This document shows, piece after piece, positions 4,192 through 62,848 of a stretch of DNA of 64,000 bases. Below the pieces are notes generated by a model. It was not told the DNA's origin. It saw only the letters and a list, made by a program, of their open reading frames with translations, and did no database searches. This DNA is from Spizellomyces punctatus DAOM BR117 (taxonomy: Eukaryota): assembly GCA_000182565.2 (NCBI GenBank), contig KQ257470.1; one strand, written 5' to 3'. Made by a program: the position numbers and the translations under genes. Position 1 is the stretch's first letter, and each line of letters starts with the position of its first letter.

Positions 4192-5634
4192 ATGTCACAG
4201 TACGTACCGCTATGGAAGTTGATGCTTTAAAGCAAACCAGGCATTAGCCACTCACTGTCATTTGTAGCCCCCGCACGTTCTTTGACATAACAATTGGAGA
4301 CGAGCCGGCGGGCCGCATCGTGTTTGAGCTTTATAACGATGTGGTTCCTAAGACAGCCGAGAACTTTCGTGCCCTCTGCACCGGAGAGGTGACATCCAAG
4401 TCGAGAGGAGTGCCATTGACGTATAAAGGAAGCACCTTCCATCGCGTGATAAAAGGGTTTATGATTCAAGGTGGCGACTTTACAAGGGTAAGTGTGCTTA
4501 ATGCTATGTACTTTGCAGCTTTGATTGATCTTCTACCTCCTGGAAAGGGTGATGGAACCGGAGGAGAGAGCATTTATGGGGAGAAATTTGAAGATGAGAA
4601 ATTCGAATACGTCCATGATAAACCTGGCTTGTTGAGTATGGCAAATGCTGGTCCCAACACGAACGGAAGGTAAAGATTTGTCTTCCTGCATTTGCGAAAA
4701 CTGGATTCCTCAAACAATTTTCAGCCAGTTCTTCATCACGACCGTCCCGACGCCTCATCTCAACGGAAAACACGTTGTGTTCGGTCGAGTCTTGAAGGTT
4801 AGCTGTCATGAACGACGTTACTCATTACGATAACTATAATTTCTGACTGCTCCTCACGTAGGGTATGAACATTGTAAGACGTATTGAAAACCTCCCAACC
4901 AAAGCGCAGGATCGACCAGAGGAACCTGTCGTTATCGCGGACTGTGGAGAGATTGCCGAAGGTGCCGACGACGGTGTTCCACCACCGACCGATGGCGATA
5001 GTTACGAAGAATATCCAGAAGATATGGGTGAAGAGAAACCCGCGGACGACCTATTGAAGATTGCTGGAGAAGTCAAAGCTTTGGGTAACGAGAAGTTCAA
5101 GAAAGGCGACTATAACGCAGCAGCAGAGAAATACAGCAAGGCTGTCCGCTACCTTAATGCAATACATCCCAGTCCAGAAGACGTGAAGGAATTATCTTTG
5201 GAACAGAAGAAAACTTTCTTTAGTACAAAGACGTCTTGTCTGTTGAACACTGCGATGGTATAGTAGCGCTTTGTGATTCTGCTAATCGTGTATCATGACG
5301 CAATGTTCTCACATTCACGGTAAAGTGCCATCTGAAGCTGACTTCATGGCGGAAAGCTGCCTCCTCAGCGACTCTTGTCCTTGACTTGGCAAAATCTCTA
5401 GAAAACCAGACAGATTTGAGCGTTTCATCGGGCGATTTATGCAAGGCGTACTTTCGTAGAGGGCAGGCGCTAGCCAAGTTGAACGATTTTGAAGGGGCGC
5501 TCGTGGATCTCCAGGCGGCGCAGAAATTATCCCCAGAGGATAAACTGATTCAGCGGGAGGTCGCTCTTGCACAGAAGGCAATAAAGGACAGAGTGGAAAA
5601 AGAGAAGCGCACGTACGCAAAAATGTTTGCATAG
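4192..5634 (+). CDS. CPR6: Cyclophilin-40-type peptidyl-prolyl isomerase with C-terminal TPRs
   Basis: MSHPRTFFD after splicing; [42 protein letters not shown] and HVVFGRV; TPR region [13 protein letters not shown] and AYFRRGQA; ends YAKMFA*. Confidence 0.93.
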
Positions 5635-5875
5635 TCGACCACTGCTGAAGAAATGACTGCCTATTACACTGGGATTTGTCAAGATTTACTTGGAAGTAGA
5701 TAGATTGTGTTGCAACCAGTGGTGATTTAATCAATGTACACTCATGCATGGGAGTGTAATGAGAATTGTGAGGTAATAATAATATATTGCTTCAATATTA
5801 TTCCATTGGCTGTCCCTGATAACTCCCTTATTTATAACTACATGGACGTGGGATCCATTTATACCTCGACCGTCT

Positions 5876-7504
<1,629 letters not shown>

Positions 7505-7707
7505 AGTGGATGTAGTTCAGTAAAAGGTGTGTATAATCTGGGATGGACGCCGAAGGCCTTGACGCCTCAAGAGCATCTGAAGAATGGATATCCGCTTTGT
7601 TTGGTCATCGTAAGCGACGCGACGGGTTAGGTCAGCGCTTGAATGGGAGAGTGTTTTGGCATTTGACTGTGCAAAATCCCCATCTTGCTGCTTTGGTTGC
7701 TACAGCC

Positions 7708-8176
7708 ATGGGGACAGCGAGCGGATCGACTAGTGCTCCAACGGCGCGGCCACTGTCTGCCCATGTCATCGATGCCGCCATGCAAGAGAAACTCAATCAT
7801 GACAAGGTAGTTATCTCGTGCATTTCGCTTGCAGGTCTTTCGCTCTGCAATGAAGCCGATAGGCAACTCTTTGGGTAGATCCAACTACGAATAGAAAATG
7901 AGCACTACATTCGAAAGCATCCAGAAATCAAACATATTCTGGACTATTTCATGACGGAAGTTTTGACCCATCAACCGAGTAACGTACAAGAATTTGCCGC
8001 AGGTGGGGATTTAATAAAGTTCAGAACGAACGTCTATGCACATCAATGAGTGACAGGTTGACATTCTTCTGTCCTCAGCTGTACTATCCGACCCAGATCT
8101 GCGGGCGAAGGTGGAGAAACACAAAATCCAGGCTCAGCAGTTTGATGAAACACTTGGCCACAGCGATAAACCCTAA
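7708..8176 (+). CDS. RIIAD1: RIIa (D/D) domain protein, RIIAD1-like, 3 exons
   Basis: Spliced sequence KIQLRIENEHYIRKHPEIKHILDYFMTEVLTHQPSNVQEFAA..LSDPDL; GT-AG introns; TAA at 8174-8176. Confidence 0.72.
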
Positions 8177-56174: not shown

Positions 56175-58297
56175 CTAATCTGATTCGTCACCACTGCTCA
56201 TGGCGGCGCTACTCGTCCGCACCTCTTCAAACCCTCCTACCCACACTTCATAAGTTTTTGGATCACAGTACTTGCCAACGACCGTTTCCTGGATTTGTTG
56301 TGCGTAGTCAAAGTCCTGCTTAGCTGCTGGTACCTCTGATAACGGTCTCATTCCCCATTCTCGTAAGCCAGCGGCGGTGACAGGGGCAACAGAAGAATTA
56401 CGGCCCACTTTGCGAACATTTGCCCATATCCACCGTAACGGTGACGGGCGTAGCGGGAGTCCTTCCGGGGAAAGAACAAGGTTTGTGAAATCGTGATGCA
56501 CTTGGTCAAGGACTATTTTCCACGCAAACCCTCGCTTTCGTGTTTGGTGACCAATTGCAAGTACATTGTCCAAGTCGCCCGTTTCCATGTTCCAATCAGC
56601 CAGCATAACGGAATAAATCGTCCGCTTTCCGCTACTTTCTTCCCAGGTACTTCCACCAGGTGTATGGGCCGACGCACTTCGCTTTGGTCGCAACCATTTG
56701 ACGACAAGATATCTCCGACAGATCGGCCTCATCTCTTTATCTTCACCATACACCATCTGTCGCATTTCCTCTCGCACATGCTCGATATTTCCATTGAGCT
56801 CATCCCACGTTTTACAATTAGGTATGTGCTCCATAATTTTCGGTTGTGCATGTGCATGCAACATAATATCATCGACGGAGGCAAGGATAGCTGAGATCAA
56901 GTCTTGCGAGGGCGGTTTTGAAAGCGCCCGGGAATTTGGCATATGCGCGGGGTTAGAAATCAACCGTATGTCGCTGTGCACTTCAGAGTGCACACCAAAC
57001 CGTTCGTGTGACAAGGAGCACGTAAGACGATTAGCGGCAAAGAGTTGTGTTGGCCTCCATTTGCCTGTTCGATACTTTCCTCCACCGCCGCAATCACTAT
57101 TTACAAAATGCTATCAGAATCAAAAAGAGACCAATGATTGGTAGCTGTATGTAAAATACCTGCATAGAGAATACTTGTTGTGGCACTACAATCGGATATC
57201 GGCCAGGTGACATCAGCAAAGATCCATCATGTGCAAACGTTGAAAATAAGCGACTTACGGCGATGCAAACTACCTCCCACCGCAAACCCGGGTTCCCCCG
57301 TCGATCCCGCGCTTATCATCGCACTGTGTACTCCTCCCACTCCAGCCTTTCTTTTGCAAACATCGCAGCCGAGAGATTTGTCGCTAGGTCCCAATAGTGA
57401 CTCCTTTCGCTTCTTGTATGGCGGCTCGGACGAGGTGCTCTGCTTCGACGCTCCTCCTTTTTCCCGTGCAGCACACGATGTACACCGTATATTAACGACA
57501 TAAGGCTCAGCAAGCTGTTCTTCCGTCCCATGCAAATACAAATGCGCTACAGGGGTCGAACAATCCCGGCATGTGGCATCAGTCTCCTTCATCTCACGTT
57601 TGCGGCGTCTTCGGCCATTATTTGTTTGCGCTGTTTGCGGTATGTCACTCTTGCTGGACGGCAATGATGGTGACGACTGCCCTATGCTAGCATACGGGGA
57701 AGAGGACGAGGATGCATTTTCCAATGCATAGTCTGCCCAGTTCTCGTCAACCAAATTCCCCTCAGCATCCTGGACGTTCAGATCGTCCTCCATCATTGGT
57801 GTGAAGAGATCTCTGGTGAAAGACATTTGTCCAACCCAACCATCCAAAAAATTGTTGTGTGAGAGTTCCGGGGTGTCCGATACAGAAATGGAATTTAATG
57901 GCACATCCGATGCATAGGAGGTTGGACTATGGGAGTATTGGCCAATGTCAATGGGAAGGTGGACCGATGCTCCCCATGACTCAACGTTCGGCACGGGAGC
58001 AGAAGGTTCGGGAGGTGTTATGGGCAAGAGGTGCAATGGCTGGGCCATAGAATGTGTACCAGTTGAATGCCCTGACGTCGCCACATTCCCCAACCCACTT
58101 GCATCAGAAGCTAGCGCCCTTTTCTCTCGTATTATCTCCAGCTCCAGTTCTTTGGCTTTTCTTTCTTCCTCTTTTGCCGCCTTCTCCGCTTCCTTTGCCA
58201 GTCTATGCTCTTGCAATATGGAGAGAATGAGCTGAAGAGAGGTTTCCGACGCATCGGAGGGTATCCTGTCGATAAGAGCTGTGAACGGGTCCGCCAT
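56175..58297 (-). CDS. Uncharacterised fungal Cys-rich (multi-CxxC) protein; apparent +1 frameshift at ~57276-57278
   Basis: CRDC, CTSC, CDVC, then EVVCIA|CHNKYSLCS|DCGGGGKYRTGKWRP...TCSLSHER across two GT-AG introns. A continuous frame requires removing one base. Confidence 0.65.
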
Positions 58298-59304
58298 TCT
58301 CTAGTGGTCTTTCTACCACCCAACGTCCGGTCTATCGTCATATGCCCAACCAAAACACTCCAATTCCAGCGAGAAATATTTTGGGCCGTTTCGGAATTCG
58401 ATGTGGAGTAGCACTAGAACCACACTTGGTAGGCTTTGGAAGCGTCGAACCATAGATTGGAATGCTTAAATCTGCCGCTGGCTTGATCGTCCGTTCCATT
58501 GGACTTGACCGTTCTTTACCTCTTGAGATTTACATCGGTGTGCAGTTGGCATAATTGAAGAAACTAAAATCCAAACAGTTCTCGCTCAAGCAGAAAGACA
58601 AACTGTATAGAATAATTTATTACATTCTGTGAAGGCTCTTCCGGAGGCCAGCCAAGGTCAGTCCATGGCGAATCTCATCTGACCATAGTGTAAATAGACA
58701 TATTTCTCGATTGCAGAATGCTCTCATGGAGGATGGTAAGTTAATATCAAATGGATATTTATGATTTGTATATGTCAGATGTGAAGCTGTATATTTTGGA
58801 GGCCGGTAAGCTGACACACTCCGAGTTAACCGCGGCTGTTCCAAATCGCTGTCGCCATGATGCTTTTAGATGGGTATGTGACGGAGAACATAGCGGCACT
58901 GTTATCTTATGAAATGACACAGACATGTAAATCCTCTCTACGTATCGCATGTCGAGTGTCGGCGTCCTGTTTCTAATATCCAACAACTACCAGAAACATT
59001 GTTAAGATTTCCTATTTGTCGTCAGCGAACAGCAGTTTACTGTAACAGAGGCTGATACCGCTGAGGATGGAACAGTAGCGGCTAAGTGGGAGAAGCACCT
59101 AGATATTTTTTTGATGCAGAGAGACTAACTATGCAATCAGAAAGAGATAATTAGAAGAAGAAAAGCCTGATACCGCATAAAGGAGGTATCTTTGTTCGTA
59201 GTTATAAGCAGCTAGTAGTTTGCAACGATTAAGTCGCATGCAGATTTAGGATATCATGAAATGTTTTCAATATCCATTCCATAATTCTCCTTCGAACATT
59301 TATA

Positions 59305-59332
59305 GTGCGGAGCCGATGGGTATTGGCACTAG
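59305..59332 (+). repeat. Left terminal inverted repeat of the Fanzor element (GTGCGGAGCCGATGGGTATTGGCACTAG), preceded by TATA
   Basis: The reverse complement CTAGTGCCAATACCCATCGGCTCCGCAC-TA matches, from recall, the 3' end of the SpuFz1 omegaRNA scaffold/right TIR with one mismatch. Confidence 0.75.
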
Positions 59333-59405: not shown

Positions 59406-59412
59406 TATATAA
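59406..59412 (+). promoter_or_regulatory. TATA box upstream of the Fanzor ORF
   Basis: TATATAA about 52 bp before ATG 59464, inside the element. Confidence 0.5.
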
Positions 59413-59463: not shown

Positions 59464-60393
59464 ATGCCACCAAAGAAGAAGCAAAAGCTTGAAAAACTCG
59501 ACAAACCCACTTTACATACCTGCAACAAGACTTCCTTTGCAAAAGCTTTCCTGCCAAACTATCACCAACGGCTTCGAGATTACATCGCCATCATCCATCA
59601 ACTTGCTGATCATGCTTCCCACGCTCTCAAATTCTACATCCTATCTGCACCAACCTTTCCCACAGTAAATGAAGATACAATCGAAGCCATACTGTATCTT
59701 CTCAACAAGGGGGAGGCTTGGCAACCAAGAATGGATGCAAAGAAGGCGATACGCGGATGCTTGTTGCCATATGTTCAATGGTACTGCCAAATTGTCGGCT
59801 TCTTTCACCCAAATCTACGAGGCGAGCAGCAGTCAATCAATTACCTGACAGCGAGTATGATGACAAACCTGAAGGTCAACGTTCAAGAACATTTCATGAT
59901 GATGCTGCTCCGATATATCAATCTGCGGCTTGACGTGAAGGGACGGAAAGGGCAACTGCCACCGAAAAGCGATGCGCGAAAAGCTTTCTTTACTCGGCTA
60001 CGCTATTTAAAGTCAGTTTTTCTTTTTGATATCGTGCCCGAGTCGCTGGATGACTTGACTGCTGAAGAGAGTGAGCTTCTAGAAGAGATCTGGACACTTA
60101 ACCTGCCATTTCCTGATCAAGACAAGCTGCTTGCCTACCTCATTGCCATTGACGCGATGTCCTTCTTTCCTGCATACTGTTGGTTGTCAAGCCTATATGA
60201 AAAGCATGGATTTCGATGGTTCAGTGCCATACCTCTGCCCCGCTCACTCATCCAAAGCCACATTCGCATCGACTCCAAAATCCTGTACCAGCATATCCTT
60301 TGCATCACGCAGCGAGAAGCAGAAGCTGTAGAGAAGGTCGATTTATGGTTGCACGTCTGTAATCTACGTACCAAAGCTTTTCGGTCTCGCTGA
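59464..60393 (+). pseudogene. Fz1: Fanzor1 RNA-guided endonuclease (TnpB/Cas12-related), truncated 309-aa N-terminal WED/REC half
   Basis: MPPKKKQKLE (NLS-like), LHTCNKTSFAKAFLPN, IIHQLADHASHALKFYIL, MMTNLKVNVQEHF, FSAIPL.RSLIQSHIRID and TKAFRSR closely match the N-terminal half of Spizellomyces SpuFz1 as recalled. The stop codon is formed at the junction with the repeat array. Confidence 0.87.
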
Positions 60394-60572
60394 TAATATG
60401 ATATACCCGGCTTATAATATGATATACCCGGCTTATAATATGATATACCCGGCTTATAATATGATATACCCGGCTTATAATATGATATACCCGGCTTATA
60501 ATATGATATACCCGGCTTATAATATGATATACCTGGCTTATAATATGATATACCCGGCTTATAATATGATAT
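60393..60572. repeat. Tandem array, 21-bp unit ATAATATGATATACCCGGCTT, 8 full copies plus a partial copy
   Basis: Directly visible; copy 7 has CCTGG instead of CCCGG; no spacers. Confidence 0.97.
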
Positions 60573-60589
60573 TAATAAGCCGTATTGAA

Positions 60590-60657
60590 GTGTTTGCCCA
60601 ATGCATTGGAGTGTTTCAAAGTGTTTCAAAGTGTTTCGAGTCTTCCAAGGTGTTTGT
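60590..60657. repeat. Short GTGTTT(C/G) iterated repeats, including a 10-bp GTGTTTCAAA tandem
   Basis: GTGTTTGCC, GTGTTTCAAA x2, GTGTTTCGAG and GTGTTTGTCC just inside the array. Confidence 0.75.
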
Positions 60658-60899
60658 CCAAGTCCGGGACTATTGATGAAGGGATGTGCGCATCTACGCC
60701 GAAAATTTTCTCTGACATACACGTAAAGTTTTACGCATCTAATATTTCGCATGTCCAAACTCCACCTAATTCAAAGTCAACACTGGTTCTAACTTGACAT
60801 TCGCTTCTTCTCAAGACTCCATGGTTCGTGTTCCCTTGGGCGGTTCATTTGGTGATTTTACTTGAGCAAATTCTTGCCACTAGGTTCAAATGCCACACT

Positions 60900-61446
60900 T
60901 TATGAAATCACTTTATCTTGGGACTCCATCTCTCCACCTTCCTTTACTGATGGTACTCGGGAGACCTTCAGTCTCAACACTTTTCGTTGTTTGCGGTAGA
61001 TTGTGGAAATCTCCATCACTTGGTCTTCTGTATATCCTGCCTCCATCAGCCCCTGCTTGTCTTTTGCTTAAACAAGCCCCATTGCTTCTCCTCGGCGAAA
61101 GATGTTACATACACAGCTGCCTCTTGTGGAGATAAGATCGTCCTCACAATATGCCCGCCAGCAACGTAGCAGTTGGATTCAATGTACGGTTGAGCGCTTA
61201 AGTGCTAATACGTAACGTTGATTGCAACACTCCGAAGCCAGACCCTGCATGCATCTCAGCTGTGGTGATTCAACAGTCNNNNNNNNNNNNNNNNNNNNNN
61301 NNNNNNNNNNNNNNNNNNNNNNNNNNNNNNNNNNNNNNNNNNNNNNNNNNNNNNNNNNNNNNNNNNNNNNNNNNNNNNGTGAGTTGGTAGAACCTCTTCA
61401 TCTCATTTAGCTCTTCTTCACTTGCTCGCCTCATCATTTTCTCCAT
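60900..61446 (-). pseudogene. Possible degraded ORF of unknown function spanning an assembly gap
   Basis: Begins MEKMMRRASEEELNEMKRFYQL before the gap. After it, YIESNCYVAGGHIVRT...WGLFKQK and DKQGLMEAGYTEDQVMEISTIYRKQRK lie in different frames. Confidence 0.3.
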
Positions 61447-61729
61447 TGTTAATTGCAGCTGTATTCGAATGTTGTATATGGAATCGTTTTTGAAAAGAAG
61501 GCTTCGAGCTGGGGAGACCGGCGACCCTCTTTTATAAACGGAAAAGGAACTCTCCCATCTTATCGATATGATGGCCTTCTTTTATGTCCCATCTGATCCA
61601 TATGTTTCCTTATGTTTCCTTTGAAGAATAATGATTCTATCGATACTTTCCCTCATATTTCATGTGACCTTTCTATCGACAGTAACCTTTCACAAAAAAG
61701 GGAAACTAATGGAGATGCTGGAAAAAATC

Positions 61730-62059
61730 CTAGAACTAGGGCTTTTTCACAACATGCCCATTTTCGCTCACTGCTCCACAAAAACAGCTCTAGAATCCTA
61801 GCCCTTTTTTTGCCCGGTCTTCTCTACTTTTCAAAAAATTTTCATTTTTTTTTTTCAAAATTGAAATTTGATTCCATTTGTGAGATTTGACCCGGGAAAA
61901 TGGGCTAGAATGGCTAGGATTCTTGTCTTTTGCTATGTAGGGTATTTTATACTACTAATAAATAAATATATATATTCTTATATGTTAAATTATACTACAT
62001 ACATGTAGAGAGAACAAAACCTAGCCATCGAAAAACTAGGATGAGCTAGGATGTACTAG
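61730..62059. promoter_or_regulatory. Origin-like non-coding region: 10 CTAG iterons, 12-bp perfect inverted repeat, AT-rich cores
   Basis: AGAATCCTAGCC (61792-61803) and GGCTAGGATTCT (61912-61923) flank a T/A-rich core; CTAGGA repeated at 10-bp spacing at 62036, 62046 and 62056. Confidence 0.5.
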
Positions 62060-62143: not shown

Positions 62144-62808
62144 CTAGCGCCTTTTGTAATGTTTTATGCAGTAGATTTTCCATGCTGGCTCTGTTAAGTG
62201 GATTCTTTTCTTGCAGCCTTCCTGTGCACAATCTCTGGTTTTCCTCCGACTTGTCCTTGCAGAACACGTGGTGGTAATAGCCATCCCTTTGCTTTTCTGC
62301 CAGTCTGGTAGACACATTGTCTTCCATGTACGCTCTTTTTCATCGGAACANNNNNNNNNNNNNNNNNNNNNNNNNNNNNNNNNNNNNNNNNNNNNNNNNN
62401 NNNNNNNNNNNNNNNNNNNNNNNNNNNNNNNNNNNNNNNNNNNNNNNNNNTCTGGGAATGACAAAAATCACATACTTCATTGTTGAGCGCACCTTCTTTC
62501 TTATACTGTTTTTCACACAGTAAACATTTCCGCATCGTATTGACAAGTTCCTGTCTCATCTTGGCTGCCCTTTCCACCTCTTCATCTGGGAAAAACCGCT
62601 TTATACAGCAGTTGCCAATGACAAGTACCTTTCCGGTATAGATGTTCTGGACAAAACAGTTCTCTTTGATGGGATGTGTACAAAGGCAGCGGTTTTCCTT
62701 GTCTAAGCGAAAACTCTCAACCTTCCATTCCCGAATGGCTTCCTCAAATAAATCGCTCAAAGATTCATTCGGTAGTTCCCTTGTGAATGTATTGAAATAT
62801 GATGTCAT
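62144..62808 (-). CDS. Cys-rich Zn-binding protein of large-DNA-virus type, spans assembly gap
   Basis: EAIREW...RCLCTHPIKENCFVQN..TGKVLVIGNCCIKRF, CLLC and CDFC; after the gap, CAQEGCKKRI...WKIYCIKHYKRR*. Confidence 0.6.
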
Positions 62809-62848
62809 GCGTGTTCAATATACTTACCACTGTTTATTGTCTATATCT

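Follow-up and report, generated by a model that had tools for sequence, protein, structure and literature searches.

The open frame annotated as SPPG_08446 in Spizellomyces punctatus DAOM BR117 is the 5' half of a Fanzor1 gene that ends at an insertion junction. We hold it very probable that this Spu-1 copy was split by a Polinton-like (PLV) element and is decaying, and that it is an ordinary relic. The window analyzed here is a stretch of 64,000 nucleotides of contig KQ257470.1, and the coordinates of its features are collected in Table 1.

In the proposed mechanism, a Polinton-like element, bounded by long terminal inverted repeats and bearing a palindromic terminus, would have hit the Spu-1 copy at codon 309/310 and produced a 5-bp duplication. 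The first bases of the element would form an in-frame TGA, which would give the 5' half the appearance of a short but complete gene. It would simply keep the ordinary start, the NLS-like motif and the TATA box of its family. The 3' half with the omegaRNA end would have reached another scaffold, probably by recombination through, or mis-joining at, an inner Ty3. Both halves would have decayed neutrally since then, largely through CpG transitions. If a product is made, it would consist of a folded REC lobe whose WED is unfinished; it would fail to load omegaRNA and would most likely have no function.

Table 1. Features of the SPPG_08446 locus and the adjoining element (window coordinates; a dot marks a feature without assigned strand)
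Feature	Position	Strand	Basis
Spu-1 left-end inverted repeat, 30 nt	59303..59332	+	annotated as 'end' at the corresponding position of supplement file 6, Saito 2023
Flanking dinucleotide TA where CA is conserved	59301..59302	+	sequence
TATATAA box in the element 5' region (putative promoter)	59406..59412	+	sequence
5' half of SpuFz1 paralogue, SPPG_08446 / XP_016604334.1	59464..60393	+	translation, homology, fold
PPKKKQK, basic NLS-like motif (predicted), family default	59467..59487	+	alignment A1
5-bp target-site duplication CTCGC	60386..60390	+	same 5-mer between element terminus and Fanzor 3' half, supercont1.3
Terminal inverted repeat, ~1.3-1.6 kb, begins TGATA	60391..61975	.	by eye against NW_015971539.88 positions 5452-6791
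Sub-terminal tandem array, 21-bp unit, 8 full + partial	60393..60572	+	TRF, 8.8 copies, 98% matches
Imperfect hairpin, inner end of array	60555..60582	+	DNA fold of 60530-60600, centroid structure
Small-ORF pieces inside the inverted repeat, homologous to SPPG_02192 of the partner end	60900..61446 (approximate)	-	peptides match both ends of the SPPG_02192 translation, by eye
Small Cys-rich ORF running into N gap	62452..62814	-	no Pfam or PHROG match
Prim-Pol / D5-like primase-helicase gene start, SPPG_08447, 833 aa	63206..64000	+	PF09250, E 1e-19

Identity and left end of the SPPG_08446 frame

Translation of 59464-60393 gave 309 residues followed by TGA with no internal stop, beginning with MPPKKKQK and ending with FRSR. 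The 309 codons free of stop or frameshift and the SV40-like PPKKKQK N-terminus reported in the earlier note were both borne out. In a phmmer search, residues 2-309 matched the SpuFz1 chain of PDB 8GKH with 536 bits (E 3e-160), and the alignment ended at FRSR. The frame covers residues 1-317 of the 638 of SpuFz1, comprising the N-terminal WED segment, the whole REC and part of the C-terminal WED, without RuvC or NUC/TNB. None of the four RuvC catalytic residues (D383, N385, E541, D606) lies within it. The statement that SpuFz1 continues past FRSR for about another half, RuvC included, was accurate, and the copy is indeed inactivated.

A fold comparison (VIA-align) of the fragment model with four SpuFz1 entries gave Z of 21.8-22.7 (rmsd 4.7-7.4, 266-285 aligned), while the best unrelated row reached Z 4.5. 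The suggested alignment to other genomic copies showed 79-92% identity to ten named longer paralogues, with P0026 the closest (92%). The Pfam search of the fragment returned no family and Rfam had no match within the window; a precomputed listing gives PF26935.1 for SPPG_08446. The proposed Fanzor1 identity is confirmed, and SPPG_08446 is a Fanzor1 / Spu-1 member by descent.

With up to 3 mismatches allowed, the left-end repeat of Spu-1 matched the window once. A CA motif is conserved before the Spu-1 left end (Saito 2023, PMC10432273), whereas the left flank of the SPPG_08446 copy reads TATA instead of the CATA TAM. Insertion of the copy into a host TATA box is one possible reason for the TA in place of CA. 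Inside the element, the TATATAA noticed upstream of the frame is present and starts 58 nt 5' of the ATG; two other Spu-1 copies have a similar or identical TATA box (by eye).

Several minor observations concern the upstream side. The left junction of the element forms a minus-strand TATAAAT at 59298-59304. Reads of RNA run X21 lie over 59004-59263 at a depth of about 4-6, oriented opposite to the Fanzor reads, and may start ~35 nt from this TATAAAT. Two host-like minus-strand ORFs are located farther upstream, at 56175-57110 and 57227-58300, and neither had a Pfam or PHROG match.

Saito et al. 2023 (PMC10432273) reported 42 Fanzor loci in the S. punctatus DAOM BR117 genome, including 19 full-length ones, and the Spu-1 element of this genome is covered by Bao & Jurka 2013 (PMC3627910). 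The exact protein SPPG_08446 / XP_016604334.1 is listed in supplement file 6 of the former on supercont1.21, with a match labelled 18-317, and the locus is thus already known and catalogued. SPPG_08446 resembles SpuFz1/Spu-1 in family, left-end repeat and fold (Z 22). It differs in ending at 317, in lacking RuvC, NUC, the cis omegaRNA scaffold and the right end, and in its TA flank.

The junction, the 3' half and the inserted element

The 3' half was located by searching the Saito supplement for the reverse strand of the 21-bp unit, which gave one array match in file 6. This partner locus, NW_015971539.88 (supercont1.3), carries a Fanzor match of 316-638 and a right end, and no 5' half. The published matches are complementary, fz 18-317 on supercont1.21 and fz 316-638 on supercont1.3. 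By-eye comparison showed that window 60391 to ~61975 is present as an inverted copy in front of the partner 3' half. This copy differs from the window by ~five changes in the first ~500 bases past the array, and window 61060-61279 is a more diverged variant relative to it. The order at the partner end is the inverted copy with two full repeat units, a 38-nt palindrome (13-bp arms), CTCGC and the Fanzor frame, which resumes with the conserved R-G-M-Q-F-E-G-S. The TGATA that directly follows CTCGC in the window is the reverse complement of the last five bases of the partner's element.

Because the partner's element terminus adjoins the duplicated CTCGC, the break is placed between 60390 and 60391, and on this comparison of the two ends the whole TGA is the first three bases of the inserted element. 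The earlier note was right that the junction makes the stop. Its placement of the junction within the codon (TG|A) did not stand: some paralogues do continue with a Cys codon (P0026, P0033; an X1 loose end falls at 60392), but this placement leaves the duplication unexplained.

The window holds one repeat only, and neither an omegaRNA scaffold nor a right end follows the frame in cis. The right end is on supercont1.3, and neither a 3' half nor a right end of the SPPG_08446 copy is listed in the published 21.6-kb locus. A second Fanzor 17 kb downstream was considered as the missing half and rejected, because that sequence belongs to a different copy, SPPG_09538, and represents its 5' part in inverted orientation. 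The available loci of file 6 contained no third array or terminus, although short matches could escape such a search. In DNA run X22, the array bin had a depth of about 5 and the partner's unit variant at 60409 was found in 3/8 reads; therefore, both array forms appear to be present in that DNA.

The terminal inverted repeat contains one N gap in the window, and an N gap in NW_015971539.88 determines how far to the right it could be followed. The array at the partner end is shorter, with 2 full 21-bp units and a partial one. The hairpin at the inner end of the array had a minimum-energy fold with z of -2.6, and 5 of 200 shuffles were as good. The 21-bp unit had no exact match in IMG/VR. A telomere reading of the array was rejected, since the X22 depth was about 5 on the array bin against 8-44 on the unique flank, and since the unit recurs within a sub-terminal repeat. 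The element left end in the window (60391-60572) is without the 38-nt terminal palindrome of the partner end. Such an end would result from loss of sequence at a short ATA match. The hairpin may have been lost in the cell, in cloning or in the assembly, which look alike here.

The gene content of the element was followed at both ends. SPPG_08447 had PHROG primase matches, which supplies the element with a replication gene. Among its 13 longer homologues, 7 are named chytrid proteins and 10 carry PF08706. No relatives were confirmed among 17 candidates in viral_contigs or 146 candidates in metagenome_contigs. The Cys-rich ORF at 62452-62814 presumably resembles proteins of large DNA viruses. 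The partner end contains a long repetitive gene, SPPG_02194, which is fibre-like by our own reading and has a homologue within a PLV-like gene set at a third Fanzor locus (by eye). Terminal inverted repeats and a target-site duplication were both found, by eye and with the two ends on different scaffolds. Judged from these repeats, the duplication and the primase-helicase, the insert is probably a Polinton-like element.

As side observations, ~330 bp at window about 61715-62050 recur as a direct repeat after the primase-helicase gene (published locus 7640-7970). SPPG_08448 is cut by a Ty3 LTR and has a 54-bp tandem repeat upstream. A RING-finger-like Cys/His pattern occurs in a stretch of SPPG_08448 that is annotated as an intron (by eye).

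In the 21.6-kb supercont1.21 locus, the frame is followed by SPPG_08447, SPPG_08448, Ty3 and a second Fanzor, which is inverted, truncated on its 3' side and has a left end as well. In this published locus, NW_015971557.14, 17 kb of virus-like and Ty3 DNA thus lie between two 5' Fanzor parts that face inward and have one left end apiece. Both of its listed 'ends' are left ends of broken copies, and it has no right end. The Ty3 inside the element has unmatched 5-bp flanks (by eye), so that the split between scaffolds is most simply explained by recombination between Ty3 copies or by a mis-join at this Ty3.

Long terminal inverted repeats together with a 5-bp target duplication are the anatomy of an insertion, probably made in a single event. 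Alternatively, one element family could have inserted twice, independently and at an identical site, into different Spu-1 copies, meaning a virus-like element that targets the Fanzor gene. This reading would agree with the two halves lying on different scaffolds. It would also agree with the third Fanzor locus, where the PLV-like gene set and the homologue of the partner's fibre-like gene were seen by eye. We consider this unlikely, as the available published Fanzor loci show only one end of each polarity, so that two events would need two separate losses, and the inner Ty3 offers a simple route to the split.

An assembly artefact at the junction, with the gene intact in the cell, is scarcely credible. 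It would draw on the N gaps in the inverted repeat, on a Fanzor-array junction for which no bridging read or contig was shown, and on an array uncovered by X6 and X1 contigs, although contig holes prove nothing. However, an artefact does not explain the matching 5-bp duplication at two separately assembled junctions. The X22 DNA reads on the array bin and the stops carried by the 3' half itself also speak against it. A single insertion of a PLV-like element thus remains the preferred reading.

Integrated PLVs with inverted repeats and 5-7 bp duplications have been described, among them an 'S. punctatus group' (Bellas & Sommaruga 2021, PMC7805220), and the insert resembles them in its terminal inverted repeats, its duplication within 5-7 bp and its primase-helicase gene. 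The S. punctatus PLV published there (NW_015971538, 154-bp repeats, pPolB) is a different element, with another scaffold, other repeats and pPolB. In Halocafeteria PLVs and virophages, palindromes adjoin the duplication, preferentially together with non-pPolB replication genes (bioRxiv 10.64898/2026.07.28.741278). A palindrome likewise adjoins the duplication at the partner end, whereas the left end in the window has no palindrome and a longer array. Within S. punctatus, the Ty3-split SPPG_09322 / SPPG_09323 shares an open RuvC-less N-half, the MPPKKKQK start and an intact left end, according to the available annotation. SPPG_08446 differs in that its insert is a DNA element of virus-like type and its 3' half lies on another scaffold.

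The two halves appear as separate loci in the Saito supplement, in which we saw no statement linking them. Literature searches on Fanzor listed no work on a truncated Fanzor inhibitor or on a PLV inside Spu-1. Linking the two halves and naming the insertion is therefore a small addition, at least relative to the literature searched. As a broken copy of a well-studied element, the locus has little significance, and its value is in annotation: two published partial loci are halves of one copy into which a virus-like element probably inserted, and a locus published as 'IR-bounded' consists of two left ends.

Family comparison, decay and expression

The intact look of the frame was compared with other family members. 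MPPKKKQK was exact in 15 of the 18 S. punctatus rows with an N-terminus (alignment A1, by eye). Five other annotated S. punctatus proteins are also RuvC-less N-halves that start with MPP, ending at SpuFz1 positions 207, 233, 250, 296 and 373, and one of them is annotated, in the available record, as split by Ty3. In a simulation limited to random substitutions and without frameshifts, the ORF stayed free of stops in 59-65% of cases at 10 substitutions and in 35-42% at 20. Because these motifs are the family default, other N-halves exist and stop-free survival is frequent in simulation, the NLS-like motif, TATA box and open frame are not beyond expectation for a 5' half of this family. As a warning, any such half should by default be expected to show an NLS, a TATA box and an open frame.

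The end at 317 was seen in no other of the 25 proteins compared, where RuvC-less ends fell at 207, 233, 250, 296, 309, 360 and 373, and the same inactivation is not conserved across the clade. As a separate observation, P0007 of Spizellomyces sp. 'palustris' is an annotated Fanzor N-half that ends at SpuFz1 309, near the SPPG_08446 break.

SPPG_08446 and P0026 differ at six positions within residues 147-309, and five of the differences are on the SPPG_08446 side (P222L, R240W, R252W, R259P and R297H). Four of these five are single CpG transitions according to DNA reads. R252W corresponds to R260 of SpuFz1, a target-DNA contact, and P222L and R297H are also found in other copies. Strict private amino-acid changes numbered 8 in SPPG_08446 compared to 2-15 in 13 other copies, and four of the 8 are in a block resembling another subfamily (around residues 87-98); this count neither shows nor excludes decay. 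At nine ORF sites at least 80% of DNA reads differed from the copy, five missense and four silent, which is too few to call.

The partner 3' half has two in-frame TGA codons where paralogues have Arg (by eye). Two stops in a half of similar length are consistent with the same slow clock. The suggestion that inactivation was recent therefore holds loosely: the 5' half shows several CpG-type missense changes, and the partner half its two in-frame stops.

The RNA-seq check proposed earlier had a divided outcome. About 6% of RNA run X21 was read (1,029 million letters, at 97% likeness); its reads are short and mostly only partly aligned, and the sample is not established as carrying the insertion. 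At six private positions, 0/24 site-reads carried the SPPG_08446 base, and three further private positions had no reads; private sites of the copy include 59576, 59803, 60128, 60181 and 60353. A search across sequencing runs listed no RNA run with the sequence, which carries no weight in either direction. The X21 depth was 0 over 59784-59939 and 60304-60440. In the DNA run, private bases were found in 34/415 site-reads at the same six positions, and compared to this the 0/24 in RNA is no significant deficit (P 0.13). Run X1, whose kind is not on record, gave contigs identical to the copy across private sites at a depth of 2-2.5 (59546-59606, 59717-59833 and 59844-59930), with none on the unique flank or the junction. 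This pattern is consistent with low-level transcription as well as with thin DNA coverage. The expression of SPPG_08446 is unsettled and low at best.

Retained contacts and the proposed trans-acting fragment

The contact residues of SpuFz1 were taken from the list in section 10 of Saito 2023 (PMC10432273). The fragment keeps 3/25 omegaRNA-scaffold contacts, and the 22 that are gone belong to the lost RuvC/NUC part. It keeps 4/6 guide contacts, 4/8 target-DNA contacts and 4/6 TAM contacts. In SpuFz1 numbering, R96, Q129, Q130, N133, K312, R315 and R317 are kept, while R260 is W and R291 is Q, the latter in common with P0026. Everything past 317 is lost, including the conserved F-E-G-S-I-T-T-D-G-x-S-V-S-V-Y-L stretch, the rest of WED and Y345. 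According to Xu et al. 2024 (PMC11423790), the omegaRNA interface is located on RuvC/TNB as well as at the RuvC-WED junction, the guide is positioned by four beta-sheets of WED, and Y345 stabilizes the unwound DNA.

In the AlphaFold model of the fragment, REC had pLDDT of 70-94. By contrast, pLDDT was below 50 at 1-23, 253-287 and 291-309, which are all of the WED segments, and no beta strand was formed; there was no valid full-length control. Structure prediction thus returned a folded REC and gave no folded WED, and the model is suggestive of an unfinished WED fold. Binding of omegaRNA by the fragment is unlikely, and weak guide-free DNA binding by REC is conceivable.

The dominant-negative role put forward in the earlier note would have the fragment expressed as a nuclease-dead decoy that acts in trans on omegaRNA or TAM DNA and damps intact Fanzors. 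We rate this as very improbable. In its most specific form, equally improbable, the insertion would supply a clean stop, and a weakly transcribed REC lobe with the NLS-like motif would occupy CATA sites guide-free and damp the homing of intact Fanzors. Such a REC-lobe product, created by an insertion, would be the eukaryotic equivalent of nuclease-dead TnpB regulators, and this genome may have several N-halves of the kind. Were the fragment an expressed inhibitor, eukaryotic RNA-guided transposon nucleases would have a means of limiting themselves, and SpuFz1 editing would have a natural off-switch.

The decoy reading is favored by the open frame, NLS-like motif and TATA box, by the folded REC with its seven retained residues named above, and by the private alleles at low depth in run X1. 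There is also a bacterial precedent in TldRs, nuclease-dead TnpB derivatives (bioRxiv 10.1101/2023.11.30.569447), which SPPG_08446 resembles as a RuvC-defective derivative of an RNA-guided transposon nuclease. However, TldRs as described there form clades with conserved inactivation, retain their overall fold and RNA-binding interface, and have an adjacent guide RNA. SPPG_08446 is instead a single broken copy without most of the interface and without a cis guide, and a retained RNA-binding interface with a complete WED was not found in it. The loss of 22/25 scaffold contacts, of Y345 and of the remaining WED, together with W at R260, argues against the decoy, and no RNA read on record carries an allele of the copy. 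SpuFz1 is described, in the sources available, as a single protein chain with RNA and DNA, which would leave no subunit interface to poison. The break points of other Fanzor fragments are scattered.
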